From contig CANREZ010000001.1 in assembly GCA_947629745.1 (NCBI GenBank), positions 125,181 to 189,180 on the forward strand: a stretch of 64,000 bases of DNA. The letters run 5' to 3'. The position numbers and the translations under genes are program-made. Below the pieces are notes generated by a model, which had not been told where the DNA came from, made no database searches, and saw only the letters and a list, made by a program, of their open reading frames with translations. Source of the DNA: an uncultured Clostridia bacterium (GTDB lineage Bacteria; Bacillota; Clostridia; Christensenellales; UBA1242). Below, in pieces: positions 14,515 through 60,900 of this stretch (positions are counted from its first letter, which is position 1; every line of letters begins with the position of its first letter).

Positions 14515-15752
14515 ACGTGTCAGATGAGCTATATGCTTTGGCTCGAGAATTTAGCAAAGCAGGTAGCACCCTGTATATCGTGGGTGGATACGTGCGAGAT
14601 AGCGTACTCGGGCTAAAAAATACCGATATAGATATCTGCGCGGACCTAAAATATGACGCCGCTATTGATCTTGCGAAGAAACTAGGCTATGAGGCAAAAA
14701 TAGTCAACGAGAAACTCGGCACTATTAGCATCAAGACCAAGCACGATGCATATGAGTACGTTACATTTAGGAAAGATAATTATAGCAAAGGCGGAGCGCA
14801 TAGTCCAGATAGTGTATCCTATGTGAAGGATATCCGTGTGGACGCTGCAAGGCGTGACCTTGCCGTAAACGCTATGTACTATGACATACTCTCTCACGAA
14901 TTACTAGATTTTTATAACGGCCTTGCAGATTTGAAGCGTGGAGTGATTCACTCAGTCACCCCAGCAAGTGAGGTATTCGCTAGTGATGGGCTAAGGATTT
15001 TGAGGCTGATTAGATTCTCGCAGGCACTAGGGTACAAGATAGATGCAGAGACTGCTGCAGTGGCAAAAAGTTTTGTGTCAAACTTAGCAGATATATCCAA
15101 AGATAGGATAATAGGTGAATTGCGTGCCATTGTAGAGCAAGCAGATAGATACAGCGTGCCAAGTGCCATAAAACGCTCTATCAAACTTATCAACGCTTGG
15201 CATATTATGGACCAAATTATCACCATTGGTGGCAGGAAGATAGATTATCACGGGATAGACAAAGTGGAGCGCGGCAATAGATTTGCCATGTTACTTTATA
15301 GGATATTCGAGCCATATGTATCTAGATGCAATAATTGTGAGGAATATTACCTCCACAATGTGTTAGGCAGGGGAGGACTCGGCGTCAGCAATAATCTTCT
15401 TGATATTGTGTCACACTTAGTTTCTATCACCCACACTGAGCCAAATCATTGGAGTGCTTATCAATTTAAGGCACTAAATACTGCTGAGCGTGACCTGTTG
15501 CGCGTGATAGATAGCGGTCTTTATAGCAAATATTATGACCTAACCCGTGATATGGAGAGTAATCACATGCCATTCACTCGCCATGACCTAAAGATTGACG
15601 CGAAATACGTTTCCTCTACGATTAAGAATCCTCGCGACACAGGTTACTACCTAGATAGGTTGATGTATGAAGTGTTGGAGAAGAACCTCCCGAATGACAA
15701 GAAACATTTAGAGTCCATGCTCCAGACCATACTCCTATCCGAGAATGTATAA
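14499..15752 (+). CDS. cca: CCA-adding tRNA nucleotidyltransferase / poly(A) polymerase family protein
   Basis: 417 aa. Head-domain motifs YIVGGYVRDSVLG and DIDI. Overlaps the upstream gene by 16 nt. GAAGGAG RBS. Confidence 0.8.
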   Translation: MYYEINVSDELYALAREFSKAGSTLYIVGGYVRDSVLGLKNTDIDICADLKYDAAIDLAKKLGYEAKIVNEKLGTISIKTKHDAYEYVTFRKDNYSKGGAHSPDSVSYVKDIRVDAARRDLAVNAMYYDILSHELLDFYNGLADLKRGVIHSVTPASEVFASDGLRILRLIRFSQALGYKIDAETAAVAKSFVSNLADISKDRIIGELRAIVEQADRYSVPSAIKRSIKLINAWHIMDQIITIGGRKIDYHGIDKVERGNRFAMLLYRIFEPYVSRCNNCEEYYLHNVLGRGGLGVSNNLLDIVSHLVSITHTEPNHWSAYQFKALNTAERDLLRVIDSGLYSKYYDLTRDMESNHMPFTRHDLKIDAKYVSSTIKNPRDTGYYLDRLMYEVLEKNLPNDKKHLESMLQTILLSENV

Positions 15753-15760
15753 ATATATTA

Positions 15761-15787
15761 GAGACTCTCATAGCAGAGTCTTTTTTA
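15761..15787 (+). terminator. Rho-independent terminator after cca
   Basis: AGACTCT/AGAGTCT stem followed by TTTTTT. Confidence 0.75.
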
Positions 15788-15855
15788 TCCGCAAATTGGG
15801 CTAAAATTATTAAGAGGGTATGAAGTTGGTGCAAGAGAGATAAAATTTGTTCAAT

Positions 15856-16248
15856 GTGGCACGCCACTGTGCTTGGGTGATAATGAAGTGAACGGATATT
15901 ATTTTTTAAGAGAGAATGATGTTGGAATGTGAGATTGGTAGTAAGCACGCTCAATCCCCTCAGTTGGCAAAAGCCAACAGCTCCCCCTACTACGGGGCGC
16001 CTAAAAGCGGATAAAACCATATAAGGCTCCCTTTTAGTAAGGGGAGCTGGCGGAAACTTCCGCCTGAGGGGATTGAGGCGACTTACGGGCCTACTTGGTT
16101 CGCGCTCATGACTCACTTGTATAATTTCATATTTATAGATTAAAAATTAAATTAAAATGAAGATGTAGTGTTAACAATTTACATAAAGATATAGACACAG
16201 TATTAACACAAGAATAATTTATTATAATCAACGAGAGTGGCGTGCCAC
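15856..16248. repeat. GC-rich hairpin-mosaic element, compact copy (element 1), bounded by inverted GTGGCACGCCAC / GTGGCGTGCCAC termini
   Basis: The left 95 nt are homologous to 26493-26585. A 128-bp imperfect palindrome at 15950-16077 is built from two inverted copies of the 52-nt motif. It lies between convergent genes. Confidence 0.8.
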
Positions 16249-16292
16249 ACTGAGGGGACTAACGCGTGCACTTGTTCCCGCCTATGTAACAA

Positions 16293-23010: not shown

Positions 23011-23087
23011 GCATCCATAGCGCAACTGGATAGAGCATCGGTCTTCGGAACCGAGGGTTGGGGGTTCGAATCCCTCTGGATGCACCA
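23011..23087 (+). tRNA. tRNA-Arg (anticodon TCG)
   Basis: Hand-folded cloverleaf: GCATCCA acceptor, anticodon loop CTTCGGA, T-loop TTCGAAT, encoded CCA. Confidence 0.85.
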
Positions 23088-23097
23088 AATGTATGAC

Positions 23098-23126
23098 TAA
23101 AAAAGCGGACAATTGCGTCCGCTTTT
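23098..23126 (+). terminator. Rho-independent terminator after tRNA-Arg
   Basis: AGCGGAC/GTCCGCT stem followed by TTTTT. Confidence 0.8.
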
Positions 23127-23180
23127 TGCATATCTAATAACTATTTCAAATATGATAGTGCATTAATTAAAATTATCTAT

Positions 23181-23561
23181 TTACCATCTTCTCAAATACT
23201 CGTGAGTAACAGCCAAGAAGAATTCGTCTTCCAAATCACTTTTGTCCTTTTTAAGATCACCATGAATTTCTTGGGTTAGGGCATAAATTTGTGCTTCCCT
23301 TGAGAGTTTCTCTATTTCCCCATAAGGATTGCCCGGCAAAGTACTGACATATGCCATCGTTGCATCTATTCTTTCTTTGATAGGAGGGAACTCTTGTATT
23401 GTCATATCTGCCTTTTTAAAAAGTGATGGATTATCCTTAATAATCATGTACATGAGAGTTAGCTCATATTGAACCTGTATTGCCTCTACTCGGGTCAATT
23501 GTTTATTTTGAAACCATTTAGGCTCGTTTTCCATCATATCCTCCACGAAACTTGCTATCAT
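23181..23561 (-). CDS. Hypothetical protein downstream of fic
   Basis: 126-aa ORF with its own TTGACA-17 nt-TATAAA promoter (minus strand, 23573-23601). The leader is very short and has no SD. Confidence 0.55.
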   Translation of the reverse strand: MIASFVEDMMENEPKWFQNKQLTRVEAIQVQYELTLMYMIIKDNPSLFKKADMTIQEFPPIKERIDATMAYVSTLPGNPYGEIEKLSREAQIYALTQEIHGDLKKDKSDLEDEFFLAVTHEYLRRW

Positions 23562-23678
23562 CTTGTCTTTTATTTATAACACGGGATAGCTCAATTGTCA
23601 ATAGGGATATTTTTAGAAAATATACTTACTTGCTAATTTTATTGCCTCATTTGGTGAGATTTTTGAGGATTAAATTTA

Positions 23679-24737
23679 TTATTTTAATGATTCTTTTCTT
23701 GTGTAGTAACTAGATTTACGATCGCCATGTTTTTGGATTTGCTTATTGTCCAACAATTTCTTTAGGCATCTTTCGATAGTTGTTTGGGACAATGTCGGAC
23801 AAAGTGCCAAAATGTCTGCCTTTGTAAATTTGCCCAAGATTGTTTTTATTGCACCCTCCACTAGAATCAATGCTTTTGAGTTGTTTTCACTCAAAATTTT
23901 TACTCTATCGTCAAGATCTCTATAAGCCTTTAAAATTACCGACAACATATATTTAATGAATGCTGAAGGATCGTTGTTATCCTCAATCCAGCCGAGTGAG
24001 CTAAATTGCAAAGCCTCATAATATTTGTCCTTGGTCTCTTCAATAATTTTTTCAATTGAAATAAATTTGCCGATATTAAAACCAAATTTATATAGCAGCA
24101 ATAGAGTAAGCAACCTGCTCATTCTACCATTTCCATCATTAAAAGGATGAATGCATAGGAAGTCCAGAATAAAAATAAGAATTAAGATTAATGGATCGAC
24201 GTCAAATTTGCTGGAAACAATGTTAAATTCTTGGCACAATCTTTCAACAGCATCTGGAGTCTCAAATGGTTCCAGAGGCTGAAATCTAACATAAGAACTG
24301 CCGTCAGGTCTTATTTCAGAGATGTAATTCTGGACATTCTTATATTTCCCGCCAATTGATTTATCTGAATACTTATATAACTGTCCATGTAATTGTAAAA
24401 TGTAAGAACTCTTAAGCGGTATATATTCATAATTTTCATGAATTACATTCAATACATCTCGATATCCAAGAATTTCCTCTTCATCTCTATTCCTTGGAGT
24501 AGTTTTATCGCTTAGAATTTGTTTGATGCGCGTAGAAGTTGTGACGATGCCTTCAATTTTGTTTGATGCTTCGGTGCTTTGAATTTTTGCAATTTCAACT
24601 AACTTATGAATTTTTGCTTTGCTATTTGATTCGATATTAGATAATCGACCCTTTAGTTCATAGATTTGAGAAATATAACCTAAAATTTCGTTATCCCAAC
24701 TAATATCCTTGTATTTTGAATAATTAAATGTTTTCAC
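23679..24737 (-). CDS. fic: Fic family protein (AMPylase-type) with N-terminal inhibitory helix and C-terminal winged-helix domain
   Basis: 352 aa. Fic motif HPFNDGNGRMSRLL. SNKIEG matches the (S/T)xxxE(G/N) auto-inhibition motif. AAAGGAGAT RBS. Confidence 0.9.
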   Translation of the reverse strand: MKTFNYSKYKDISWDNEILGYISQIYELKGRLSNIESNSKAKIHKLVEIAKIQSTEASNKIEGIVTTSTRIKQILSDKTTPRNRDEEEILGYRDVLNVIHENYEYIPLKSSYILQLHGQLYKYSDKSIGGKYKNVQNYISEIRPDGSSYVRFQPLEPFETPDAVERLCQEFNIVSSKFDVDPLILILIFILDFLCIHPFNDGNGRMSRLLTLLLLYKFGFNIGKFISIEKIIEETKDKYYEALQFSSLGWIEDNNDPSAFIKYMLSVILKAYRDLDDRVKILSENNSKALILVEGAIKTILGKFTKADILALCPTLSQTTIERCLKKLLDNKQIQKHGDRKSSYYTRKESLK

Positions 24738-24747
24738 GATATCTCCT

Positions 24748-24834
24748 TTATTGCATCATTATACAACTTTTGATGCAATAAATCAAGCATTTATTTTAGT
24801 TTATTGCATCATTTGATATATTTTGATGCAATAA
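24748..24834. promoter_or_regulatory. Two copies of a 34-bp palindromic operator (TTATTGCATCA-N12-TGATGCAATAA)
   Basis: The copies lie at 24748-24781 and 24801-24834, with centres 53 bp apart, in the divergent region between fic and 24945. The first copy abuts the fic RBS. Confidence 0.7.
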
Positions 24835-24944
24835 AATGAATTTTATAAGGGTAATAGTCAATTTCTCAATAATGCTTTTCTTCATCACAATTGCCTATTG
24901 ATTTGGAGTGGTTAGTATGGTAAAATATTTGTGTTGAGGTATTT

Positions 24945-26474
24945 ATGATAGATAATGCAAAGGCAAGTATAAATAGTGTGCAAGATTACGTCTATTATTT
25001 GATGTTAAAGAGGACCACTTACAGTGATCACATTGTGGTGGAAGTAAAGCGTGAGGATCTAGTAAGTCCAAATTTTTCACGCGCTATTCGGGATCAATTA
25101 TTTGTTATGCTTGCTGGTGGCAAACGTGTAGAATTCCATTGTATTGACAAGGATTTGTACTTTAGAGAAAGTGAAGCCTTAAAGTTACTTGGCGACTATG
25201 AATATCTTAAGGCTCATGGTTGTGAATTATATTTCCGCGAGACATTGGATGATATGGGGATAGAATTTAGTCTAGACGAAGCTGATAGACTTGACTATTT
25301 TACAATAGGCTCCAACAATAAAACGTATGAGAATGATGATAGGGTTCAGGCTGGCAAATTGGATTGGGATAAAACGGGCAAGACTATGACAACGCCAATA
25401 ACATTCGATCAAGTGATGGAGGCAAATTCAAAGATCCTCTCCGTTGCAAATAAGATAAATAGATATGCAGAGGAACATAATATCTCTCCATTTGAGAAAT
25501 TCTTGATCTGCCGCAAATACATTTGTAAAAAAATTGAATATATTACCGAACCTGTAGTGGACACGCATAGTTATATTGGCACTATACTTGCAATGAAAGG
25601 TTGTTGTTCGGGTGAAGCACAATCACTTAGAATTTTACTCAAATTATGTGGGATAAATTCATTTTGCATTAGCACAGATATTAATGCAAAGGATGTAAAT
25701 CTTTCCCTTCCACTAATGAGGAGATATAGCGGAGTCAATACGCTTATTTATGAAGGTAAAGAGTTAACCATAGATGAGTATGAAAAGATTTGTATAGACA
25801 AAATTAATAGCTTAGAATCTAAGGAAATGTCTACAAATCACGCCATCAATATAGTCCAAATAGATGATGATAAATATGGCATGCATGGAATAGGCGCTAC
25901 TGATCCTACCGGGAGTAATGATTTTGAATTACTATTCATAAAGGACAAAGAATGTCTTAATAATTTATTCAACTTTTCATCATATATACGTCTTTTACAC
26001 GGTAATGGATTTGAGGAGTTCATCCGAAATGTAGAGCAGAACACGATAAGCAAGGATGATTACAAAAAGATTGATGAAGATATTTTCAGTTTTGCAAAAA
26101 TGTCAATAATAGAACAGATAAAGGGAAGTACGCCAAAGAAATTAACAGATGAAGACCATAATGCAATGGCTATTTTCCTGAATGCGATCATTAAGTGTAA
26201 AACATTATCATCCTTGGAATATATAATGGATCTTTATAGTATGGGTCAAAATTCCAGCGAAAGTGAGTTAGCGCGTCATATATTCCCTCGCATTAAGAAT
26301 AACAAACTTGGAGCGTATTGCTTAATAAAAGAGGCTATTAGTAGTCGTGCCACACTCGAGAATCTGCCAAGGCTAGAGCCATTGTCGGTAGATGACTATG
26401 CGTGGGCTGACATAGTGTCAGACAAAGCATACAATGCTATCTTCCCTGAGGATAGCAACAACACGCAAAGATAG
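24945..26474 (+). CDS. Hypothetical protein with a central transglutaminase-like cysteine-protease core
   Basis: 509 aa. A candidate Cys-His-Asp arrangement is KGCCSGEAQSLRILLKLCGI ... NHAINIVQIDDDKYGMHGIGATDPT. Confidence 0.55.
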   Translation: MIDNAKASINSVQDYVYYLMLKRTTYSDHIVVEVKREDLVSPNFSRAIRDQLFVMLAGGKRVEFHCIDKDLYFRESEALKLLGDYEYLKAHGCELYFRETLDDMGIEFSLDEADRLDYFTIGSNNKTYENDDRVQAGKLDWDKTGKTMTTPITFDQVMEANSKILSVANKINRYAEEHNISPFEKFLICRKYICKKIEYITEPVVDTHSYIGTILAMKGCCSGEAQSLRILLKLCGINSFCISTDINAKDVNLSLPLMRRYSGVNTLIYEGKELTIDEYEKICIDKINSLESKEMSTNHAINIVQIDDDKYGMHGIGATDPTGSNDFELLFIKDKECLNNLFNFSSYIRLLHGNGFEEFIRNVEQNTISKDDYKKIDEDIFSFAKMSIIEQIKGSTPKKLTDEDHNAMAIFLNAIIKCKTLSSLEYIMDLYSMGQNSSESELARHIFPRIKNNKLGAYCLIKEAISSRATLENLPRLEPLSVDDYAWADIVSDKAYNAIFPEDSNNTQR

Positions 26475-26492
26475 GGGATAAGTTATAACAAA

Positions 26493-27164
26493 GTGGCACG
26501 CCACTGTCCTAGGGTGATAATGAAGTGAACTGATATTATTTGTTAGAGGGAATGATGTTGGCATGTGAGATTAGTAGTAAGCACGCTCAATCCCCCTTAC
26601 TAAGGGCGGCCTTTAAATAAGGACGGAATAGATATATGAGAGAGTATGGAGCACGAATGTAAGTAAGCAAAAAAAGTCGGCTCAATCCCCTCAGATTGCA
26701 TACGCAATCAGCTCCCCCTACTACGGGGCGCCTAAAGCGGTTAAAATTAAATAAAAAGATGGAACAATCGCTTAAACAAGCATTATATATTTGGGGTCCC
26801 CATAAAAATAGCTTGCGGCAAAATAGGGCATCCCGCAAAAATAGTCGTAGACGTACTTTTTGTGGGAAAGAGGAAGAGTCGAGTGATACCTCGGGAGTTT
26901 GTGCGAACAGCACAAAATTTCGTTTTAAACTCGTGCTCTGACGAGGGGAGGAGGCGAAGTCACGCGATACCCGGAAGTTGGCTGAGCGTATAAAAAATGC
27001 GAAGCCAACGCTTAAACGAGTGTGTACACTAACGGGGTCCCCGCAAAAATAGCGGAACGCGGCCTTTTGTGGGGAGAGGAGGAACAAATGCATAACCTGA
27101 AAGATTGTTCCATGATTTGTAAAAAAAATGGAACAATCGCTTAAACAAGCATTTGTTCCGACGA
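26493..27164 (-). repeat. GC-rich hairpin-mosaic element, long copy (element 2), fused to the 3' end of tRNA-Leu
   Basis: It starts right after the CCA of tRNA-Leu with a terminator hairpin and ends at GTGGCACGCCAC (26493-26504). It contains the 52-nt motif (26681-26732) and CAAAA/TTTTG-stem hairpins (26832-26866, 27039-27074). It is an inverted homologue of 34446-34997. Confidence 0.8.
27121..27159 (-). terminator. Rho-independent terminator of tRNA-Leu (part of element 2)
   Basis: On the minus strand: GGAACAAATGCTT-GTTT-AAGCGATTGTTCC hairpin followed by TTTTTTTT. Confidence 0.8.
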
Positions 27165-27249
27165 TGGTGCGGATAGGGAGACTCGAACTCCCACGGATTG
27201 CTCCACATGCCCCTCAAACATGAGCGTCTGCCAGTTCCGCCATATCCGC
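27165..27249 (-). tRNA. tRNA-Leu (anticodon GAG)
   Basis: Type II tRNA: GCGGATA acceptor, anticodon stem-loop CATGT-TTGAGGG-GCATG, long variable arm, T-loop TTCGAGT, encoded CCA. Confidence 0.85.
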
Positions 27250-27352
27250 ATATTTAGTTGTAACGAATATATAATAACATACTTTGAGATATTTTGAAAT
27301 ACTTTTTGTCCATATTTTACAAAATTCTATATCTATACTTATCTAAAAGTAC

Positions 27353-27381
27353 TGGACATAAAACATTTTATGTTATATACT
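27353..27381 (+). promoter_or_regulatory. Sigma-A-like promoter for tRNA-Val
   Basis: TGGACA-17 nt-TATACT, 20 nt upstream of the tRNA 5' end. Confidence 0.55.
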
Positions 27382-27400
27382 TGAAGGGTATCCTGAATAT

Positions 27401-27476
27401 GGGGAATTAACTCAGTTGGTAGAGTGCTTCCGTCACATGGAAGAAGTCATAGGTTCGAGTCCTATATTCCCTACCA
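27401..27476 (+). tRNA. tRNA-Val (anticodon CAC)
   Basis: The cloverleaf folds by hand. The anticodon stem-loop is CTTCC-GTCACAT-GGAAG, with an unusual G at position 32. The D and T arms are identical to tRNA-Val(GAC) at 35032. CCA is encoded. Confidence 0.75.
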
Positions 27477-27483
27477 TAGAAAA

Positions 27484-27510
27484 GATGAGACTTGTGTGTC
27501 TCATTTTTTT
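27484..27510 (+). terminator. Rho-independent terminator after tRNA-Val
   Basis: ATGAGAC/GTCTCAT stem followed by TTTTTTT. Confidence 0.8.
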
Positions 27511-27554
27511 GTGGATTCTAACTATTTGTGATATAAATAACTATAAGAGGTCTT

Positions 27555-28217
27555 ATGGATAATAGGTTTAAGTACAGGGCGTTTAATAGAGAAAAAGCGC
27601 TAAAATTTGGATTTAGGTCGGATAGTGCGGGGTACATATACGAGCAAGATATCTTGGATGGCACATTTAGGCTAGTGGTAACTATTAATAGTACAGGGGA
27701 AGTGTCGACCAAGGTCCTAGATAACAAAACTGGCGACGAATATATCATGTACAAGTTGTCCTCTAGTGGAAATTTTGTGGGGCAAGTGCGCGAGCATTGC
27801 GACAGCGTGTTAGACGAGATTGCACGAGAGTGTTTTGACCCAGATTCTTTCAAAAATACTCAGACTAAGGAAATTATAGCATATATCAAGGATAAATATG
27901 GTGACGAACTGGAATTCTTATGGGAAAACTTCCCGACTGACGCTATTTTTAGACGAAAGGATAATAAGAAGTGGTATGCACTACTAATGAGTGTAAAGAA
28001 CGAAAAGTTGAATCTATCTAGTACGGGTGAGAGTGAAGTGTTAGATATTCGCTGTGATGCAAATGCTATACAGAATATCGTGGATGGCAAAAAGATTTTA
28101 CCTGGTTACCATATGAATAAGAAACATTGGATCACTATAGTGTTAGATAATAGACTAGATATGGCGACTACTAGAGCCCTTATTGACGATAGTTACATGA
28201 TAGCGGGGAAGAAATAA
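27555..28217 (+). CDS. MmcQ/YjbR family DNA-binding protein with N-terminal extension
   Basis: 220 aa. The C-terminal half (FRRKDNKKWYALLMSV ... PGYHMNKKHWITIVLD) fits the YjbR fold family. Confidence 0.7.
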   Translation: MDNRFKYRAFNREKALKFGFRSDSAGYIYEQDILDGTFRLVVTINSTGEVSTKVLDNKTGDEYIMYKLSSSGNFVGQVREHCDSVLDEIARECFDPDSFKNTQTKEIIAYIKDKYGDELEFLWENFPTDAIFRRKDNKKWYALLMSVKNEKLNLSSTGESEVLDIRCDANAIQNIVDGKKILPGYHMNKKHWITIVLDNRLDMATTRALIDDSYMIAGKK

Positions 28218-28377
28218 CGTAGCAAAAACTTTCTCTAACTCAAAATTATCGCTACAATACGCCAAATTTTAAAGAAAATTTTTGTAAAAACAATTAAGAT
28301 TTTGGATATAAAATGCCTAAATTTCGTGGGCAAGAAATACGCCTAAAAAGATTGTAGGAATTGCATAAAAGATTTAC

Positions 28378-28406
28378 TTGCACTTTTAGCTTGAACCCTC
28401 TATAAT
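28378..28406 (+). promoter_or_regulatory. Sigma-A promoter
   Basis: TTGCAC-17 nt-TATAAT, about 55 nt upstream of the small ORF at 28460. Confidence 0.65.
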
Positions 28407-28459
28407 ATACAATATGTTGGGTAAAATTATCTAACGCACTACAATATATGGAGGGACAT

Positions 28460-28606
28460 ATGAGTGATCTATATGGTAGTAGTACTACATACAACGATGA
28501 AGATGGCAACGAGATAGTGTTTCACGAGGAAATTGGCGTGGACGACGATGGTCAGATCGGCTATAACAGCGGAATATCTATAAACGGAATTGATCTGGAT
28601 TATTAA
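28460..28606 (+). CDS. Small acidic hypothetical protein (48 aa)
   Basis: MSDLYGSSTTYNDEDGNEIVFHEEIGVDDDGQIGYNSGISINGIDLDY. It has a GGAGGG RBS 5 nt upstream, its own promoter and a downstream terminator. It falls below the ORF-track length cutoff. Confidence 0.45.
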   Translation: MSDLYGSSTTYNDEDGNEIVFHEEIGVDDDGQIGYNSGISINGIDLDY

Positions 28607-28671
28607 AAAAATTTAGAAATATTTAATAAAAATTATTTAATAAAATTTTGGGCATAACTTTTTTATACCCA

Positions 28672-28703
28672 CAAAAAATGTAGCAAAAGTGCTACATTTT
28701 TTT
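28672..28703. terminator. Bidirectional terminator
   Basis: ATGTAGC/GCTACAT stem flanked by an A-run and a T-run, between convergent genes. Confidence 0.75.
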
Positions 28704-28705
28704 GT

Positions 28706-29224
28706 TTATTCGATATACTGGATATAATCTTTCACACGCTCGCGCGAGGTATTGAGGAATTCCTCAAATAACTCGGGCCTATTATTTAGATCAGCATATA
28801 TCTTGCTCTGCAGGATGCAATCTAATTTGTCTAGTGCCTTTACGAAGCGAGCCTCAGGTGAGCTATTCTCCTCAAATTCTAGCCAAAGCGACTCAATCTC
28901 GGGCATACTAGAAAGATTTGATAGGCGGCAGATACATTTGTGTTCCTCACAATACTTTTGCTCCAGTGGCACATGGTCGATAGGGGTGACATCTCCCACA
29001 TCTATCTCACCCAGTTCGTGGAAGAGTATCATCTTTAGCACTTTCGCCTCATCCAGTTTTAGATGTTCACGCTCCATAATTTCACAGGCAAGTACAGCCA
29101 TGGAGAATGTGTGCTCAGCGTCACTCTCGACGCGTTTTGTATTTGGGTCAGACACATCTCTTACGATCCAGCCTTTCCTGCAAAGATTCTTTAACTTGTA
29201 AATTTCTTTGAATAACTCTGTCAT
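28706..29224 (-). CDS. HD-domain phosphohydrolase (YfbR-like 5'-deoxynucleotidase family)
   Basis: 172 aa. Contains ESDAEHTFSMAVLA and LFHELGEIDVGD (H..HD..D metal ligands). Confidence 0.8.
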   Translation of the reverse strand: MTELFKEIYKLKNLCRKGWIVRDVSDPNTKRVESDAEHTFSMAVLACEIMEREHLKLDEAKVLKMILFHELGEIDVGDVTPIDHVPLEQKYCEEHKCICRLSNLSSMPEIESLWLEFEENSSPEARFVKALDKLDCILQSKIYADLNNRPELFEEFLNTSRERVKDYIQYIE

Positions 29225-29334
29225 AATTTACCTACATAAATTTATATTACATTTGATCTAAATTTAGTATAACGAAATAAACTTTGCCTGACAAATATTT
29301 TTATCTCCCAACAACATATTTGGTGATCCTGCAC

Positions 29335-29363
29335 GAAAAAAGTGTGCCAAAATTAGCACACTT
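29335..29363 (-). terminator. Rho-independent terminator
   Basis: AAGTGTGC/GCACACTT stem with a T-run on the minus strand. Confidence 0.7.
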
Positions 29364-29385
29364 CATTTTACTATTTAACCTAAAA

Positions 29386-29721
29386 TTAATAGTCCTTTTT
29401 CTTTTTCTTAAGCTCATCTAGTTGCATTAGGATGACAGCATTGTACTGCTCATCAAGCTCATTATACATTCTTTTGAAGTTATCTGCCTTTTGCCAAGAA
29501 GTGGAAGAAGGATTGACATTCAGTCTCTTGCCCTCTATTGCGACCTTTTGCATATAGTCTGCTTTTGATGGTGACCATTTCCTAACGTACGCCTCGGTGA
29601 CATTGTATATGATGTCAAAGATACGGTCGTCGTGAACTTTGCAAAGTTCCTGCATCTGCTCCTTCCTAATTAGTGTGTCATGAATTTGTTGCTCAATTTC
29701 GTCTGCTGTGAAATTTGTCAT
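29386..29721 (-). CDS. Hypothetical protein
   Basis: Start set at MTNFTADEIEQQ, preceded by AAAGGAGAT. The track start at 29769 lacks an RBS. Confidence 0.55.
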   Translation of the reverse strand: MTNFTADEIEQQIHDTLIRKEQMQELCKVHDDRIFDIIYNVTEAYVRKWSPSKADYMQKVAIEGKRLNVNPSSTSWQKADNFKRMYNELDEQYNAVILMQLDELKKKKKDY

Positions 29722-29793
29722 ATCTAATCTCCTTTTTATCATGATAACATATTTTACGCTTGATGGCAAAGAATGTAGACAATTATCAAAAAT

Positions 29794-29868
29794 TGGTCGG
29801 GGTGATGAGATTTGAACTCATGGCCTCATGGTCCCGAACCATGCGCGCTACCCCTGCGCTACACCCCG
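29794..29868 (-). tRNA. tRNA-Pro (anticodon CGG)
   Basis: CGGGGTG acceptor, anticodon stem-loop CATGG-TTCGGGA-CCATG, T-loop TTCAAAT, encoded CCA. Confidence 0.85.
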
Positions 29869-29965
29869 AAAAATATGATTGCATAACCATATAAGATATG
29901 ATAGCACAACCAAGGATTTTTTACAATCCAAAGTGGATAGATAATAACTATGGAGTAATTGTAGA

Positions 29966-30000
29966 TAAAAATAGGCCACAGTATTTGTGGCCTATTTTTA
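29966..30000. other. Strong terminator-like hairpin in a divergent intergenic region
   Basis: ATAGGCCACA/TGTGGCCTAT 10-bp stem flanked by AAAA and TTTT. It lies between the tRNA-Pro 5' end and the MFS gene start. Confidence 0.5.
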
Positions 30001-30111
30001 ATAAACGGTGACAAATAGGGGATAAATATATTACACCATATATTCGTCCATAATATGTATAAAAAATTGACAAAAAAGAGTGCATTTGCTAAATTGTTTA
30101 TGTGAGGCAAT

Positions 30112-31422
30112 ATGGAATATACTTATGATATAAATACTAGTAAGAAAGATAACCGTGCCAATGTGTGTATATTCATCTGTCACTTCTTTTATGCAGTGAT
30201 TGACCTATTCATATCCACATTCCTTGTGGCGCATATCAAGGATCTCACGACTAGTGTAGGTGAATACATCAGGTATATCGCGATATATTACATGATAACA
30301 CTTACCGTGCAACTAGTGGCGTACCCTATAATCTCAAGGATCGTGGATAGGACAAATCGTGTGTGGATGTACAGGATTGGTTGCTTGATGCTCGCAGTTG
30401 TTGTCACTTTGTCTATGTTTAGTGACAAAAACACCTTAGTTATGCTCATTATTCTGGGTTCATGCTATGGTGTGGCAGATACGGCATATTATGCTAGTTA
30501 CAATACTATGAAGCAAGAGATGGTCAGTCGCAAGTCGATTGAGAAATTCTCCTATTATATGACGATTATATCTAAATGCATCGATGTGGTAGTGCCACTA
30601 ACACTCGGCTCTATCATTCAGTCATCGTCCTTTGTCGTGGGAAGTATAGTTGTCGCAATAATTGCTGCTATCCAAGTGGGTGTGTCATTTGGCGTATCAG
30701 CCAAGCATCCAAAGGGTAGCAAATTTAATATGCGGGGATTCATTAGGAAAGTGCGATCACGTCCGGCATTAAAGAAGAAACTGGACTTCCTGTATGCAAT
30801 ATTTGCGGGCTATGGATTCCTACTATTCTTTAGCATATGCATGAATGTATTCACTATGCTGCATATGGACTCCAACTTATCCCTTGGAATAATTAAGAGC
30901 TCGTGTAGTGTGATAGCAATATTATTTACTGTCATGTCACTCAGTCTTGGCAAGATCGGCAAGCGCACTCCGTCGTATATAATTTGTGCAATACTTCCAG
31001 TGATTGCCGGAGTAATATACGCTATCAACCCATGTGAATGGACTATAATATTCTTCACACTTGCATTCCTTATTAGTTACATCGAGTGTAAGACCACTCT
31101 TGATTACTTTAGAAATACACTGCTAAAGGAAGCAGGTCTATACAGTGAGATTACCGAGCACCAGACACTAATTGAGATGTTACTTGCTACAGTCAGATTA
31201 TTTACATTTGCACTGCTACTTGCTATGTCATTCGTAGGCAGTGAGCTTGGAGTCAATATCCTTGCTTGCATCTTCACTCTAGCATTCCCATTCATCTATA
31301 TTATGCTCATCATCTTTGAGAAGAAGATACTCCCTATTGGCACAGATGCTGATATCGCGGGAAGTAATGATGCAAGTGATGTGCAAACTAGCGAAGACAA
31401 GGGAAACCTCAAAAACAACTAA
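30112..31422 (+). CDS. MFS-type transporter
   Basis: 436 aa with about 12 TM helices and a central cytoplasmic loop. Preceded by TTGACA-17 nt-TAAATT and a GAGG RBS. Confidence 0.6.
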   Translation: MEYTYDINTSKKDNRANVCIFICHFFYAVIDLFISTFLVAHIKDLTTSVGEYIRYIAIYYMITLTVQLVAYPIISRIVDRTNRVWMYRIGCLMLAVVVTLSMFSDKNTLVMLIILGSCYGVADTAYYASYNTMKQEMVSRKSIEKFSYYMTIISKCIDVVVPLTLGSIIQSSSFVVGSIVVAIIAAIQVGVSFGVSAKHPKGSKFNMRGFIRKVRSRPALKKKLDFLYAIFAGYGFLLFFSICMNVFTMLHMDSNLSLGIIKSSCSVIAILFTVMSLSLGKIGKRTPSYIICAILPVIAGVIYAINPCEWTIIFFTLAFLISYIECKTTLDYFRNTLLKEAGLYSEITEHQTLIEMLLATVRLFTFALLLAMSFVGSELGVNILACIFTLAFPFIYIMLIIFEKKILPIGTDADIAGSNDASDVQTSEDKGNLKNN

Positions 31423-31545
31423 CTATAAAATTAGTAGAGTTGCTAACAAATAGCGAGTAACAAAATAATTATTTGTTAGAAAGTAGCAAAAAGACCAATT
31501 GTACTAATTCAATTAGTAGCAATATTGATAGTTTAATATTTGTGA

Positions 31546-31581
31546 TAAAAAAATGCATTGTTTCGCACAATGCATTTTTTA
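31546..31581. terminator. Bidirectional terminator
   Basis: AATGCATTG/CAATGCATT stem flanked by an A-run and a T-run. Confidence 0.8.
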
Positions 31582-31588
31582 AACTTAT

Positions 31589-32416
31589 TTAGTGAGTGGA
31601 GACGAATATGAATCCGAATGCGTTTGGTCCCCAGTGGCACGCGATAGCAGGGTCTAGGTTGTCATAAATGGTCATTACCTGCTTGTATTTCTCATCACAC
31701 ATATTCACTAGTGCATCGAGATTGCTTTGATTGTATGAGTATGATGCGATGATAGGATAACTTGTGTCACAATCAAGCTCAGATAATTGCTTTGAGATAT
31801 ATTGCATGCTGCCGCGAAGACCTAGCTTCTTTGCAATCACCTTCACTTCGCCATTAACGAATCCTATAACCGGCTTGATATGAAGTGTGTCGCCGAGAAT
31901 TTTTTCGAACCTATTTAGTCTGCCGCCACGATATAGATACTCTAGTGTCTCAGGGATAGCCATGATGTGAATCTTCGACCTTAGCTCTTCCAATTTCCCA
32001 AGGACAAAATCTATATCCTTGTCGCGATATTTATTCGCTTCCATCACAAGATATCTTATAGCACCAACTGCTCCCATGGAGTCAAATACGTGGACTTTTT
32101 CGTTCTCCTTGAACATATTTGAGATGGTGTTGAACGTGCCAGAAATTTTTGACGAAATGGTGATGAGCAACACTTCGTCACCTGCTTTTGTGTAACCCTC
32201 GACTAACTTTTGCACGGATTCAAGCTCGGGTAGGGCAGTCTTTGGGAATAACTTCTCATCGATTAGTTTGTGGTAAAATTCTTCATTTGAGATCTCTATC
32301 TCATCAGCGTAATCTTTGTCTTCAAATATGACGCGAAGAGGCAGGATATCCACATTGTACTCAGATTTTTCCGCCTGCTTGATACTGCTGCCGGAATCAA
32401 CAATTATTCTTAACAT
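31589..32416 (-). CDS. DegV family fatty-acid-binding protein
   Basis: 275 aa. The N-terminus (IIVDSGSSI ... VDILPLRV) and the length fit DegV. AGGAGA RBS. Confidence 0.85.
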   Translation of the reverse strand: MLRIIVDSGSSIKQAEKSEYNVDILPLRVIFEDKDYADEIEISNEEFYHKLIDEKLFPKTALPELESVQKLVEGYTKAGDEVLLITISSKISGTFNTISNMFKENEKVHVFDSMGAVGAIRYLVMEANKYRDKDIDFVLGKLEELRSKIHIMAIPETLEYLYRGGRLNRFEKILGDTLHIKPVIGFVNGEVKVIAKKLGLRGSMQYISKQLSELDCDTSYPIIASYSYNQSNLDALVNMCDEKYKQVMTIYDNLDPAIACHWGPNAFGFIFVSTH

Positions 32417-32579
32417 ATTATCTCCTATATATACTATCTATGAAAGCAATTTCTCAAATATTCTCCCGAATATATGCGAAATTTTTGTATTTTAATCATC
32501 TTATCTTAAGGAACATTGTAGCACAATCTATTTCTTTTGCCAAGGGAATATAATAGTATAAAGTGCAACTCGTGCGAAT

Positions 32580-33251
32580 TTAGTCATTTTTTAGGAAATG
32601 GTTAAATGCGAGTAACCACACATTGCTTGTTATATCCTCAGGCTTAGTGTAGGATGTGATAACACTTGCGTCGTGCTTGGTAAAGGCTATTACATCAAAT
32701 AGTTTGTAATAATCTGTAGTCGGCATGACTAGATTGTGTGCCACGTCTATCACCTCTCCTGCACTCTCTATCCAGGTGTGAAGGTGGCCTACACTATGGC
32801 GTTCCCACTGAGATATATCTATCACTCCTGTTACAATAAGATATGTGGAGTGAGGACATTTGCGGCAAACATCTATCACTTGGTCTGCACTATCTCCTCT
32901 AGAATTCTTGCTAGCACGGACGAGGTTTGCTGGTCCTTGTTCGTCAAGCCTTGCATATTCGAAATGCCCCACTATAGGGTTGCTAAATTCTTCGCTCTCT
33001 TCACTATTTAGATAGATGCCGTCGCCGTGTTTGTGTTCATTGTATTTTTGCAGCTCATGGTAGACATCTAGCCTGTCACTTCCTGCCATGCATTCCTTGA
33101 TAACAAGGCCTGCAATCACACCTTTTGGCTCACGCTTTCGGGGTTTGCCCATATACGTATCTGTGTCAGACGATGCTTCGTCGCGGATACGCTTTTCTAC
33201 GAATCTCTTTGCCTCAGATATGTTTAGATTCAAAATGTCCAATTCTTCCAT
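32580..33251 (-). CDS. Hypothetical protein (possible papain/transglutaminase-like Cys-His fold)
   Basis: 223-aa ORF. CRKCPHS ... GHLHTWIESAGEVIDVAHN hints at a Cys/His/Asp hydrolase, but this is weak. It has a leaderless-type promoter. Confidence 0.55.
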   Translation of the reverse strand: MEELDILNLNISEAKRFVEKRIRDEASSDTDTYMGKPRKREPKGVIAGLVIKECMAGSDRLDVYHELQKYNEHKHGDGIYLNSEESEEFSNPIVGHFEYARLDEQGPANLVRASKNSRGDSADQVIDVCRKCPHSTYLIVTGVIDISQWERHSVGHLHTWIESAGEVIDVAHNLVMPTTDYYKLFDVIAFTKHDASVITSYTKPEDITSNVWLLAFNHFLKND

Positions 33252-33257
33252 ATTCTA

Positions 33258-33286
33258 ATTATACTTTTAGTAGAGAGTTTTGTCAA
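33258..33286 (-). promoter_or_regulatory. Perfect consensus sigma-A promoter positioned for a leaderless mRNA
   Basis: On the minus strand: TTGACA-17 nt-TATAAT-tagaat-ATG (start codon 33249-33251). No SD. Confidence 0.65.
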
Positions 33287-33348
33287 AGTGTAACTAGAAG
33301 TAATTCTAATTTAGGTGGGATAGAGCATATCATATTGTGAGGTGGAAT

Positions 33349-33633
33349 ATGGAAAATGTAATTCGCGTGACAAACAATCAACCGACAGGTACTCACCGTG
33401 TGGTGATAGACTCTAGAGAAAAGGTGACTATGACTGGGGTAGAAAAGGTGGATAGTGCCTCGGATAGTCAAGTAAATCTCCATGCTGCAAAGACCAAGGT
33501 GACAATATTAGGCTCGGGTCTATTAGTGAATAAATTTGACGTGGAGAGTGGCAACCTAGAGGTAGTGGGGAAAATAAATGGAGTACGCTATAACGAACCA
33601 GCCAAAGGATTACTAAAAAGGTTAGTTAAGTAA
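33349..33633 (+). CDS. yabP: Sporulation protein YabP
   Basis: About 94 aa. The YabP-like core reads HRVVIDSREKVTMTGVEKVDSASDSQVNLH ... LEVVGKINGVRY. Start set at ATG 33349 (GAGGTGG RBS). Confidence 0.75.
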   Translation: MENVIRVTNNQPTGTHRVVIDSREKVTMTGVEKVDSASDSQVNLHAAKTKVTILGSGLLVNKFDVESGNLEVVGKINGVRYNEPAKGLLKRLVK

Positions 33634-34001: not shown

Positions 34002-34192
34002 TGGATAACAACAAAAAATGGACTTTAATCTCACTGATAGTATCGGGCGTCATCATGGTGACACTGATTGTTGTCATGTGCTTCCAGTTCGTGAAGATAA
34101 ATGATTACAAGTCGAGACTACAAGATTTGGAGCGCCAATTGGACGAAATTAGTGAAAAATTGGATGATTCTACTTCGGGGAATAACCACTAG
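34001..34192 (+). CDS. divIC: Septum formation initiator (DivIC/FtsB family)
   Basis: A single TM helix followed by a coiled coil (LQDLERQLDEISEKL), in the yabP-yabQ-divIC synteny. GTG 34001 overlaps the yabQ stop (TAGTG). The track start at 33953 is in the same frame. Confidence 0.55.
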   Translation: MDNNKKWTLISLIVSGVIMVTLIVVMCFQFVKINDYKSRLQDLERQLDEISEKLDDSTSGNNH

Positions 34193-34226
34193 AATACTCT
34201 AGCCAGCAAAATATCGCTAAAATGTA

Positions 34227-34360: not shown

Positions 34361-34368
34361 TTTATTTT

Positions 34369-57885: not shown

Positions 57886-57951
57886 TGTAATATAATTTAT
57901 CCTTAAAGAATTTTAGGGAGAGATTAATCCGCTAATTTTAGGTGAATGGAA

Positions 57952-60900
57952 ATGGAAAAAGTGAAGAGTAAAATAGTACTATTGATGTCGATATTGCTAA
58001 CCTGTGTGTTAGCGTTATTCGGTTGCGGTGATCCGTATAGAAATATGAAGCTTAGCGTTGATGCTGAGTTTGATAGCACTACTGGGCAATACACTAAGAC
58101 CGTGGTGGTCGACGAGAATACTGATACATTCACTCTATCTGCTACCGTCTCTGGTGCAGAAAAAGGTGTGAGTACTGACCTAAGATTCACAGTTTCCAGC
58201 ACAAACAACGCTATTGAGCAAGTGCCAAATAGCGTGACAAAAGTGAGCAACACGACGACTGCAACATTTAGGGTAAACAAAGTGGATAATGCCAAAGTCG
58301 ATGTTATCACTAGTGAAGGACCAAATGGTGGACTGAAAGCATCTGTCCTAATCAATGTGGTAAAGGCTGTCCAGTCCATGTCATTCATCCCAGATAGCAC
58401 TGACCCACAAAATCCATGCATATATGTCGAGCGCGGCAAGGCAAAGGACCTAACAAAAGGACTCGCCTACACTCCATTTGACACCACTCAAAAAGATCTA
58501 GAGCTAGTAAGTATCACAGATATTGTAGGTGGCACAGCTGCTGATATATCTATCGATGGCAACAAATTGCTCGTTGCAAGTGGCACTGATGTTAGGAGCT
58601 TTAGTGTAGAGGTAAGGTCAAAGGGAAATACCGATGTCCACGCTACAACCAAGGTGGATGTGGTCGACCTGATTGATGAGAATAATATAACATTAGCCCA
58701 AATAGAGAGTGGCCACTATACTGAACTAGAGAAAAACGAACAGGATATATACACTATCACCCTCGCTAGTAACAATCCTGCACAAGATCTGTGGAGGAGA
58801 GATATATACTTTAGATATGGCTCAGATTTTGCTGCCCTTGGTGATTACACTGTAACTATCGAGGATGGCACACTGATGAAACTATTTAGAAGTTTCGAAG
58901 TGAATATGGTGGACTCAGGGAAAGAAAATCAACATGCTGAGGTCACTACTCTAGCTAATCCAGGCACTGAGCGTGTGAGATTTGCTATCAAATACAACGC
59001 TCATAGCGGGCTTGAGACCAAATATATTGACCTTGAAGTGCGCGTAGTCGTCTATCCTACTAGGATTGACGTTTATGACCACAATGGTGACGCACTTGGT
59101 GTTAGCAACCCATTTGTCGTGTATGACACGCGAGAGTATTCTAGCGGAGATTATTTTGCATTCCGCGTGTATGGCAGCACGGGGGAGCTCATCGATACCA
59201 GCAGCCAAGTGTATATCAAGGTGGGCAAGCTATCGGGTGAGAATATAGTGGAGGACCCAAAAGTAGCGGTCTACACTCAATATGATTTCGTAGTAGGCAA
59301 CAACGCAGTGCCAAGTGGCGTGCCATACTATGTGAGACATACATATACTGACGTCGAGGAAATTAGTGGCGAGTACTACTGCGAGATTCGCAGTGCCACT
59401 AAGGGATCAGATGTCAAAGTGACCTTCCCTATCACATTCATTCGTGGTAATGTCAGTGTGCAATTTACTGAAGAACAAAAGAGCATGAGTCTAAATACCG
59501 AACAGACTCTGGTGCTATCATCGAATTACTCTAGCTTTGATGACAGACGTGACCAATTAGTCCTCTCATATGATAGTGACCTGATTGAGGCTAGTTTAAC
59601 TGATGATGGAGTATTAGTCCGTGCATTTGATAGGCGTGGCACAGTGACCCTAAGGCTTACTTCGCCAAACGGATTCACCTCCACTATCAATATCACTATA
59701 TTTGAGACACTAGAGACTGCTAAGGTACGTGTATTTGGCAGAGAAATTACTGGCTCAGAGACCGAAGTAACTGATGAGAATGTAATAAAATTTGTTGGCC
59801 GAAGTGGAGAGAGCATCCCACTAGACTTTTTATTCAAAAATACTGGGACGTATTCTAGCGTTATTCCAGAGGATATAGAGTTCTCTCAGAGCTCAAATAA
59901 CGTCGTTCTCGCATCCATATTTGAAAGCAACGGCGCATATAGTTTGATCCTTGGAAATAGAGTGGGAACGGCTAGGATCAATATGTCATTCCTAGGATTC
60001 AACGAAGATGGAGTAAGAGAGCAAATTTTCTATATATCATTTGATGTAGAAGTGAAGATAATTGTGACCAGCACGAATTACGTATCCAATATGAGTGCAT
60101 ATGATCACAAGGGTATGATCACGAGCGCTAGCGTGCCAACTTTGATGGAGGCAACATACACACTTAGCCCAAGCGGCGCAACACTCACTACCGACGAGGT
60201 GGAGTGGCAGATAGTGATCGGCACTAGCACCTTTACGCTAAATTATCTGCGTGAGAGTTCTAGCGAAGTGGAGGATAGACCAAGATACAACTACGACTAT
60301 GAGACTAATACGAAACAATACGACTACACTGATAGCGTAGGCAATAGATATTACTTTGTCCTAGACCTTACTACACCATTTGTCATGCGCACATACGCCA
60401 TACTTGCAGATGGCGTGCAATCTGTCTCATACAACGCTCAAGTGATAATCACACAAAAGTACACCGATAGGCGTGGCAGTGAGATAACTGAGCAGGATAC
60501 GAGCACCAATTATAGATTCACTGTAGACCGTGTAGCAACAGTTAATGACATCATCCTTAGCGGCGTGTCAAGGAGAGTGGAGAATGGCTCCAGCACCCTA
60601 GTCCTCACATTCGATAAGAGGAAGGGTGGAATGGTAGATCAAACGACTGTAGAGAGTGCACCTGAAGGCAACAGGCGTGTGATATACGCTAGCCTCAACC
60701 CATCCTATGCACTGTACAAAGAGATTAACGCAAGGTTCAATTTCGGCAGTGCAAATGACTACTTTGATGTAAAAATAGAGGATTACAATGGCAGTGATTA
60801 TGTGAAGAAGATCACAATCACGATGATTAAATCTATCGCATTACTCCCAAAGGAGACATCAAATATTGTATGTACTCTTGCAACTATGGATGGCGGCAAT

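Follow-up and report, generated by a model that had tools for sequence, protein, structure and literature searches.

A two-hairpin motif best described as the core of an interspersed palindromic repeat conserved across genera of Clostridia

The window analysed here is a 64-kb stretch of DNA from an uncultured Clostridia bacterium. It carries, in this order, genes for a radical-SAM protein, a CCA enzyme, an M14 peptidase in reverse orientation and CmpB. SpoIIE and NrdD are also encoded, pointing to a spore-forming anaerobic Firmicute, and the sole close match to the window was a 1.9-kb contig from ERZ27249358. Only seven tRNAs were detected in the window with Rfam 15 at gathering thresholds. 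GC content is 33-44% (about 40%), so the term AT-rich used in the original prediction was too strong; because the window is only this GC-rich, a motif of 55-59% GC stands out in it. This motif, GGGGGAGCTG-N14-CTGAGGGGATTGAG, was matched exactly four times when up to three mismatches were allowed, at 15950-15987 (-), 16040-16077 (+), 26681-26718 (-) and 34867-34904 (+), and it was not matched in any of 100 dinucleotide-preserving shuffles of the window. The four copies are those originally predicted (16001-15950 (-), 16025-16077 (+), 26732-26681 (-) and 34853-34904 (+)), and their N14 spacers read as reported.

Each full-length copy in the window is 52-53 nt long; a conserved hairpin (P1) is followed with no gap by a variable hairpin (P2) and then by the 13-nt purine tail, CTGAGGGGATTGAG. 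All four copies lie between convergent transcription units. A covariance-model search, from which the bit scores given below were taken, recovered two decayed copies with its filters off, alongside the same four full copies, giving a tally of four full and two decayed copies per 64 kb, all of them intergenic. The features of the repeats are as follows:

15852-15949, minus strand: module X on the downstream side of copy A, with the palindrome GTGGCACGCCAC (15856-15867) at its end
15950-16001, minus strand: copy A; P1 is GGCGCCCC-GTAGTA-GGGGGAGC with a G.A mismatch, P2 is G-TTGGC-TTTT-GCCAA-C, tail CTGAGGGGATTGAG; 69 bits
16025-16077, plus strand: copy B; P1 of the common type, GGCTCCC..GGGGAGC, P2 GCGGAA-ACT-TTCCGC, then the tail; 70.3 bits
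16237-16260, plus strand: decayed copy; palindrome GTGGCGTGCCAC followed by CTGAGGGGAC; weak covariance-model match at 16221-16267
26489-26585, minus strand: module X, downstream of the decayed short copy; palindrome at 26493-26504
26586-26611, minus strand: decayed short copy, GGCCGCCCTTAGTAAGGGGGATTGAG; P1 fused straight to the tail, P2 gone; weak covariance-model match at 26582-26618
26681-26732, minus strand: copy C; P2 ATTGC-GTAT-GCAAT; 67.3 bits
34853-34904, plus strand: copy D; degenerate P2, GATGC-GTTA-GCAGA; 63.2 bits
34905-34999, plus strand: diverged module X, downstream of copy D; palindrome at 34986-34997; likeness to module X judged by eye

Copies A and B form a head-to-head pair, the sole such pair in the window. 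Upstream of copy C, at a distance of about 430 nt, is tRNA-Leu(gag), and about 410 nt upstream of copy D is tRNA-Met, each on the strand of its copy. The two stretches of the 97-nt module X at 15852-15949 and 26489-26585 share 91% identity. The palindrome GTGGCGTGCCAC was found 80-160 nt downstream of each window copy, which brings the repeated unit to about 155 nt instead of 52. The 52-nt extent originally proposed describes real copies of 52-53 nt which belong to a larger anatomy that includes the P1 hairpin, the tail and this longer unit. The decayed copy at 16237-16260 is a P2-plus-tail-like remnant that closes the unit opened by copy B, and the short copy at 26586-26611 has the form expected from a deletion between two AGGGG boxes. 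The window palindrome GTGGCACGCCAC (12 nt) opens with GTGG and closes with CCAC; as a REP-like feature, these ends are suggestive only.

The left flank of the motif corresponds to P1, which in most genomes has a 10-bp stem (GGCTCCCCTT-loop-AAGGGGAGCT); in three of the window copies a T to G change produces a G.A mismatch. P2 is made up of the N14 spacer together with a closing G-C pair, and it begins at the nucleotide right after P1 (a 0-nt junction). The predicted folds are stable (z-scores of -1.1 to -4.6) and leave the purine-rich 13-nt tail unpaired. An AGGGGA box is present in the 3' arm of P1 and in the tail, and its complement forms the 5' arm of P1, making three boxes of which one is inverted. 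The length of the G-run in the tail tracks that of P1 (4/4/4 in 41 copies and 5/5/5 in 10), and the subfamily with GGGGG in P1 also has GGGGG in the tail. Three P1 subfamilies were distinguished: alpha (GGC..GCT), beta (GCC..GGT) and gamma (GGCCCCTTTG..AAAGGGGGCT). P1 loops differ freely among copies (AGT, GGC, GGT, GCGG, GGTGACC), and P2 lengths are 11, 13, 14, 15, 17 and 21 nt. An A-rich 5' flank, AAA ahead of P1, is conserved and may belong to the element.

Perfect 5-bp stems are formed by three of the four window spacers, as originally stated, and counting the flanking G-C pair extends these to 6 bp; the fourth, GATGCGTTAGCAGA, has three inner pairs and the outer G-C only. The predicted covariation of this hairpin was also recovered. 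When 22 copies were aligned with MAFFT, 96.5% of the cells paired and two-sided changes occurred in six of the seven P2 pairs, and none of 500 shuffles equalled the observed covariation score. The corresponding figure for 70 distinct copies is 96.4%, compared with 41-54% in slid controls and again unequalled by any of 500 shuffles, with compensatory changes in 13 of 17 pairs (P1, 7/10; P2, 6/7), in an alignment that was fitted to the covariance model and so leans towards structure. P1 covaries between the alpha, beta and gamma subfamilies. We consider the two-hairpin structure and its covariation to be solid. Covariation by itself cannot tell RNA from single-stranded DNA hairpins, and template-switch correction of quasipalindromes can keep arms complementary without selection.

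The loops of P2 give indirect evidence in this respect. Triloops are present in 32 of 70 copies, 26 of these being C(GNA)G, while GNRA was found once in 70 and UNCG in none; C-G is the closing pair of P2 in the great majority of copies. As DNA, mini-hairpins of the d(GCGNAGC) type are extremely stable and need a C-G closing pair; their RNA counterparts are far less stable (PMC13037366; PMC3201870). The P2 loop repertoire therefore leans to DNA more than to RNA. With the invariant basal G.T excluded, the model-fitted alignment has 18 G.T pairs on the motif strand against only 6 A.C pairs. This excess indicates that one strand matters, and both RNA and single-stranded DNA are compatible with it. 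Elements of the IS200/IS605 type (PATEs) carry subterminal hairpins and insert at a conserved target tetranucleotide, with a bias to the template of the lagging strand. No such bias is apparent among the window copies, only four in number, which are oriented two on the plus and two on the minus strand of a segment with uniformly positive GC skew; the four phage copies described below all share one strand.

No known RNA family was recognized, in keeping with the original prediction. In 15 carrier loci from other genomes Rfam identified two tRNAs and one TPP riboswitch, all away from the motif, and in permissive mode the best match to the motif itself was anti-hemB, whose 20.7 bits fall well short of the threshold of 49.5; a known family was rejected at gathering and permissive thresholds alike. 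Several other candidates were discarded. By our own inspection of the sequence, CUGAGGG differs from the CUGANGA core of hammerhead ribozymes, and the tandem purines around P2 are AG/AG and not the GA/GA of a k-turn. A tRNA-like or SINE origin was dismissed, as GGTTCGATTCC follows one copy only (L003) and neither ARAGORN nor Rfam calls anything there. P2 as an insert with a 'CTG' target duplication (AGCTG-P2-CTGAG) was set aside since the beta subfamily has GTG-P2-CGG. TACTACG, in the complement of the window P1 loop, resembles the nick sequence of pMV158; a rolling-circle nick site in the P1 loop was ruled out because P1 loops differ freely between copies.

Beyond the window, 21 loci in five MAGs were found among 185,579 species genomes scanned: UBA4696, the uncultured Oscillospiraceae CAYRYT01 and CAKUJL01, Ruminococcus sp. 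RGIG4744 (JAFUQX01) and Clostridia bacterium JAZRXJ01. A metagenome scan added five further contigs, and a slightly looser pattern matched four stretches on three IMG/VR viral contigs. The covariance model, built from 22 copies and applied at E<=5e-5, detected 72 copies in 252 kb of loci from at least eight other Clostridia/Oscillospiraceae assemblies, a density that is not genome-wide, as the loci were picked for holding one copy. Carrier loci have a GC content of 50-64%, compared with 40% for the window. The only homologues detected as shared between window and carriers are 24-28% identical, yet the motif core is nearly identical. The alpha consensus was unmatched in annotated phage and plasmid collections. 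In the full-text literature, motif strings matched unrelated primers only, and a search for REP together with Ruminococcaceae returned nothing relevant.

Comparison with relatives revealed that the positions of the element are not conserved. The closest longer relative (L028), with 44-64% protein identity to the window, shares the gene order given above; its spacer between the CCA enzyme and M14 peptidase genes is 44 bp long with one bidirectional terminator, versus 540 bp with repeats in the window, and no copy of the motif was found in 11.5 kb of this relative. A U32-peptidase locus in JAFUQX holds a 165-bp element, and 28 kb from relatives whose U32 peptidase is 92-94% identical proved free of copies. 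Their U32 intergenic regions do not align with it, and hence no alignable empty site was obtained. Two contigs of the same species with 100% identical U32 are polymorphic: L038 is filled, and L039 has an exact 121-bp deletion which leaves a single P1 hairpin between otherwise identical flanks. Through this deletion the beta-copy P1 is fused to the alpha-copy P1 in reverse complement, the two forming a 20-bp direct repeat. The L039 allele is a deletion, possibly an assembly artefact, and not a demonstrated insertion. Two assemblies end within repeats, L027 in the palindrome and L040 in P2. According to a crude gene call, the spacers occupied in other genomes are convergent (15), divergent (12) or tandem (8), with the motif in both orientations. 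Position and orientation beside homologous genes, which would be conserved for a cis-regulator or an RNA gene, were not conserved. The absence from L028 and from the JAFUQX relatives, the L038/L039 polymorphism and the overall distribution speak against an RNA gene or cis-regulator of conserved position, and favour an interspersed repeat that is turning over.

Promoter and terminator scans gave no consistent signal at the copies. In every copy P2 is followed by CTGAGGGGATTGAG and not by the U-tract of an intrinsic terminator, and the terminator scans mark other hairpins, never the motif. A functional structured RNA domain, used by many transcripts as part of small RNAs, 3'-UTRs or intercistronic regions, is nevertheless worth weighing, although we consider it unlikely. 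P1 and P2 might conceivably stack coaxially in such a domain, with the tail or the Shine-Dalgarno-like AGGGGA box binding a protein, the ribosome or another RNA, and protection from 3' exonucleases or a processing site would be its possible, if doubtful, roles. The covariation of both stems, the 18 to 6 excess of G.T over A.C on the motif strand and the stable predicted folds with their 0-nt junction are all in keeping with an RNA domain. So are the position of all four window copies between convergent units, where 3' ends are expected, and the retention of the core sequence across distant genomes. Since the G-run of the tail tracks that of P1, the tail could also pair alternatively with the 5' arm of P1; however, this G-run covariation amounts to approximately one subfamily event. 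The C(GNA)G triloops in place of GNRA or UNCG, the mixture of divergent (12), convergent (15) and tandem (8) spacers with both orientations in other genomes, the lack of positional conservation in relatives and of a consistent promoter or terminator, and the antisense orientation of all four phage copies relative to the genes that hold them all weigh against it. An RNA gene, in particular, is unlikely.

Copies of the motif are also arranged in larger structures. JAFUQX, CAKUJL and UBA4696 contain a convergent pair in which alpha faces beta or gamma over 26-45 nt, for a total of about 165 bp, and convergent alpha/beta(gamma) pairs are present in CAYRYT as well. The four JAFUQX copies of this pair have the ends GAAAGCCTCCCC...GGGGAGCCTTA, as do those in CAKUJL and UBA4696, and no target-site duplication is visible at the four JAFUQX copies. 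CAYRYT possesses a mosaic of about 430 bp, alpha - linker - alpha - linker - beta(rc), with linkers carrying GTAGGGGCCGATTCTTAATCGGCCC in opposite orientations. The inverted pairs with defined ends in JAFUQX (four copies), CAKUJL and UBA4696, the size typical of MITEs, the patchy distribution and the phage vector could be explained by a conventional MITE, in which the alpha/beta pair of about 165 bp would have arisen by deletion from an IS with long structured terminal inverted repeats (TIRs) and be mobilized by a DDE transposase in trans. Its hairpins would then be incidental or would stabilize the ends. We regard this as rather improbable. Solo copies, head-to-head pairs and tandem alpha-alpha arrays misfit an element with fixed TIRs, no target-site duplication can be seen at the four JAFUQX copies, and compensatory changes inside a 'TIR' would be unexpected if duplex DNA were recognized. 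Moreover, no parent IS was found in the carrier loci, nor a match in the annotated phage and plasmid collections.

Scanning for GTAG followed by a hairpin revealed GTAG+GGGC...GCCC hairpins with covarying interiors adjoining the motif in CAYRYT (13 copies), CAKUJL, L022, L023/L026 and the phage contig L031; in the window and in JAFUQX the same scan for GTAG-GGGC hairpins found none. According to PMC6006769, canonical REPs have GT[AG]G at the 5' foot, one subclass has three G-C pairs at the bottom of the stem, and 'double-foot' forms come from the central deletion of inverted dimers. The neighbouring GTAG+GGGC..GCCC hairpins match this published definition of canonical REPs (PMC6006769). The GT[AG]G foot is absent from the motif itself, where GTAG occurs only within the P1 loop of three window copies.

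REP, BIME and REPIN elements are associated with RAYT (TnpA-REP) proteins, which are Y1 HUH proteins, in E. coli, Pseudomonas and Stenotrophomonas (PMC3733652, PMC6006769). Our elements resemble REP/BIME sequences in being high-copy, mostly extragenic palindromes, in forming inverted pairs and mosaic arrays with specific linkers, and in having subfamilies in one genome (motif alpha/beta compared with REP Y/Z). They also share in-frame copies within genes, central deletions between inverted dimers and, as separate modules in several carriers, GTAG-tagged hairpins beside the motif. Unlike REPs, the motif lacks a GT[AG]G foot and joins two adjacent hairpins to a conserved tail of 13 nt that stays single-stranded. 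REP systems have a cognate RAYT gene in the genome, typically with repeats on both sides; no RAYT or transposase gene was seen among the ORFs tested in the 64-kb window and in carrier fragments of up to 14 kb. A tblastn search with an approximate IS200 TnpA query gave no match in the available loci, and no inverted copies enclosing a transposase-sized ORF were found among the carrier loci. Since the GT[AG]G foot is missing, and the inverted ends of the JAFUQX elements come with no visible target duplication at four copies, the motif was assigned to neither REPs nor MITEs. Word searches of PMC3733652 and PMC6006769 yielded no account of a REP-like system in Clostridia: 'Clostridi' does not occur in the former, and in the latter 'Clostridi' occurs twice and 'Firmicutes' not at all.

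The motif is also carried by a phage. A 41.9-kb viral contig (L030/L031) that encodes an integrase and an HTH repressor contains four copies, all on one strand and all antisense to the surrounding genes. Two of the four lie within stop-free ORFs and are read in two different frames. One of them falls, in frame, within the linker of a lytic transglycosylase that connects its membrane helix with its 3D domain. Among homologues of this protein the linker is hypervariable, some holding translations of other repeat modules and others none; GRTEASAPTGAG, for example, is a translation of the complement of the GTAG hairpin, and no close empty allele was found among the homologues for the phage linker. 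In-frame insertions of REPs in genes are reported in PMC6006769 and PMC3733652. The presence of copies on a temperate phage contig makes temperate phage a plausible vehicle for the patchy distribution of the family.

The claim that a selected RNA or DNA hairpin is present thus stands on the covariation, but the discrete RNA gene or cis-regulator that it implied does not, as the element is a high-copy repeat, is absent in relatives and occurs in phage ORFs. Across the census of genomes and relatives the spacers do pair, as predicted, while the profile is that of a REP/MITE-type repeat, an outcome which the original prediction had itself named as speaking against it.

The phage copies also bear on whether the complementary strand codes for a small peptide. 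The ORFs at 15926-16015 (+), MMLECEIGSKHAQSPQLAKANSSPYYGAPKSG, and 26562-26630 (+) have their first 15 codons in common, and both are preceded by a promoter-like GTGGCA-N17-GATAAT (matches at 15856 and 26493) and a GAGRGA box. A coding function is hardly credible, because P2 lengths are not multiples of three and the phage reads the same DNA in two frames; in addition, the compensatory changes are structural rather than synonymous, and the two ORFs diverge exactly at the differences between repeat modules.

A non-mobile chromosomal DNA site, at which a nucleoid or recombination protein would bind the three AGGGGA boxes or an ssi-type hairpin would admit primase, is conjectural and very improbable. 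It would suit the three boxes, one inverted and co-varying in length, and the C(GNA)G loops of P2, as such mini-hairpins occur at single-stranded DNA priming sites including the G4 origin and ssiA (PMC13037366). Presence or absence among close relatives and rapid decay argue against a host site that is needed, as do the copies inside phage ORFs. We know of no protein that supports the nucleoid or priming-site reading.

Based on these observations, the element is best described as an interspersed palindromic repeat with a two-hairpin-plus-tail core conserved across genera, uncatalogued and of a familiar kind. We suggest, with a probability of roughly 0.6, that the motif is the core module of an uncatalogued, non-autonomous and mobile family of mosaic palindromic repeats, akin to REP/BIME elements or MITEs. 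Phages have probably aided its patchy spread through Oscillospiraceae and related Clostridia. Copies would be gained, duplicated to inverted pairs and arrays, and lost via deletion between short internal direct repeats, with solo P1 hairpins or P1-tail fusions as the decay products. The hairpins may persist because an enzyme that recognises hairpins acts on the element in its single-stranded DNA form, the most plausible candidate being an HUH/Y1 protein similar to RAYT/TnpA-REP; P1 and the AGGGGA boxes would be the recognition sequence of the protein and P2 a purely structural hairpin. Correction of quasipalindromes by template switch could also maintain the complementarity of the arms, and effects on host transcripts, such as 3'-end protection or processing, would be secondary, if any. 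Our confidence in a specific HUH mechanism is markedly lower than in the mobile repeat itself.

P1 and the tail are strongly conserved in sequence across a 20% difference in GC. REPs are normally species-specific, so that conservation of this kind is unusual for them and speaks against the repeat reading; a conserved function in the host or at the RNA level could be its cause instead. A further, rather unlikely reading is that the motif is either the recognition module of an undescribed REP-like system of Clostridia, with a domesticated or phage-borne protein acting on single-stranded DNA or RNA hairpins, reading the invariant P1/AGGGGA boxes and sensing P2 by its shape only, or a widely shared RNA domain that resides on a mobile repeat. 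A recognition module of this type would explain why the same 40 nt were kept despite the 20% difference in GC. To our knowledge, no REP-like system has been described in Clostridia, and REP/BIME-like systems have been characterised almost only in Proteobacteria.

Other families of bacterial repeats offer partial parallels to the mobile repeat proposed here. BOX elements of Streptococcus pneumoniae have a boxA-boxB(n)-boxC organization in which the end modules are mutually inverted, the number of internal modules varies and a strong structure is predicted. We know of no transposase for BOX, nor of its occurrence beyond pneumococci and close relatives. Compared by description, BOX modularity resembles the alpha-alpha-beta' mosaics of our motif, whose family, unlike BOX, is found in several genera and in a phage. 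The palindromic elements of Rickettsia (RPE) are 100-150 bp long, restricted to Rickettsia, and insert in frame into tolerant parts of proteins. The linker of the phage 3D-domain lytic transglycosylase takes an in-frame copy in the same manner as RPE and, as described in PMC3733652, intragenic REPs; unlike RPE, all window copies are intergenic. The Correia/NEMIS and RUP elements are MITEs whose short TIRs match a known IS and which have a target duplication (e.g., TA). Our element shares with them a size of about 100-170 bp, inverted ends, an interspersed distribution, the capacity to fold as RNA and possibly the ability to affect neighbouring transcripts, but IS-matching TIRs and target duplication were not found for the motif (four JAFUQX copies).

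If the mobile-repeat reading is correct, a mosaic system of REP/BIME type, with an unusual two-hairpin core conserved across genera, is present in Oscillospiraceae of the gut and in their phages. The motif would then provide a handle for finding the enzyme that moves or processes it, for understanding why contigs break and spacers are inflated in gut MAGs, and for tracing exchange between phages and hosts. About 1 kb of three intergenic regions of the window would be repeat debris and not regulatory sequence of the neighbouring genes. Mobile DNA palindromes can yield clean covariation, a caution for the discovery of RNA motifs.

By eye, a hairpin (AGAGACTCT..AGAGTCT) followed by T6 was observed apart from the motif at 15761-15785; the terminator scan is silent there, and the hairpin looks like the terminator of the CCA-enzyme gene.

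Seven tRNA genes of the window (Arg-tcg, Leu-gag, Val-cac, Pro-cgg, two Met and Val-gac) are dispersed, single or paired, on both strands within 12 kb (23011-35107), each occupying its own spacer, and tRNA genes border three of the four spacers that hold the 52-nt motif (hairpin P1, abutting variable hairpin P2 and a purine tail). A motif copy in viral contig L029 adjoins a tRNA as well. A second repeat family was found beside tRNA genes at two sites in the window:

26753-27172, downstream of tRNA-Leu (-)
34437-34673, downstream of tRNA-Met (+)

The two sites have about 220 nt in common, at roughly 90% identity. The first element of the shared stretch is a hairpin resembling a terminator, GGAACAAACGCTTGTTTAAGCGATTGTTCC followed by T8; next come nested hairpins of the form CCC(C/G)CAAAAA-[variable GC-rich mini-hairpin]-TTTTTG(T/G)GGG; as in the motif, a variable core is held within constant flanks. 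At comparison locus L017 (7320-7405), the unit AGCTG-hairpin-CTGA occurs twice in tandem, in the order CCCTCTTGAGGGAGCTG-TCGCCGTAGGCGA-CTGAAGGAGTTACAAGGGGAGCTG-TCGCGTAGCGA-CTGAGGGGATTGAG; judging from this arrangement, P2 and its flanks can duplicate as an independent unit.

A sigma-70-like promoter score was obtained for three copies of module X, the repeat downstream of motif copies, from the palindrome GTGGCA... and (G/T)ATAAT 16-17 nt further on:

15856-15884 (+), promoter-like signal
26493-26521 (+), promoter-like signal
16248-16221 (-), promoter-like signal
15926-16015 and 26562-26630, short ORFs after the signal, MMLECEIGSKHAQSP...

The signal is directed antisense through the motif. 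In the temperate phage contig (L030/L031), both the motif and a REP-like GTAG hairpin lie within ORFs that run through them in frame, with two different reading frames used. The ORFs containing repeats encode a 3D-domain lytic transglycosylase and a Cys-rich 151-aa protein:

L031 6979-7620 (-), ORF/motif region
L031 8684-9139 (-), ORF/motif region
L030 1780-1844, ORF/motif region

The databases contain just one close relative, a 1.9-kb ERZ27249358 contig (L027), whose CCA enzyme shares 96% identity with that of the window. The contig matches window 15700-15863 exactly until it ends, halfway through the palindrome GTGGCACG; short-read assemblies are broken by the repeats.

Other repeats were observed in the window. 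Two 36-nt near-perfect palindromes, TTTATTGCATCA...TGATGCAATAAA, spaced 53 nt (24747-24835), look like operators; the spacer that holds them separates a Fic-domain gene (23679..24737, -) from a divergently oriented 509-aa ORF without a Pfam family. A 24-nt direct repeat, TTTATTTAGTCACTTTGCACAAAA, is present in four copies at 57379-57606 (spacings 102, 45 and 57 nt), downstream of pheT, close to where a 171-aa ORF (57924..58439, -) has its 3' end.
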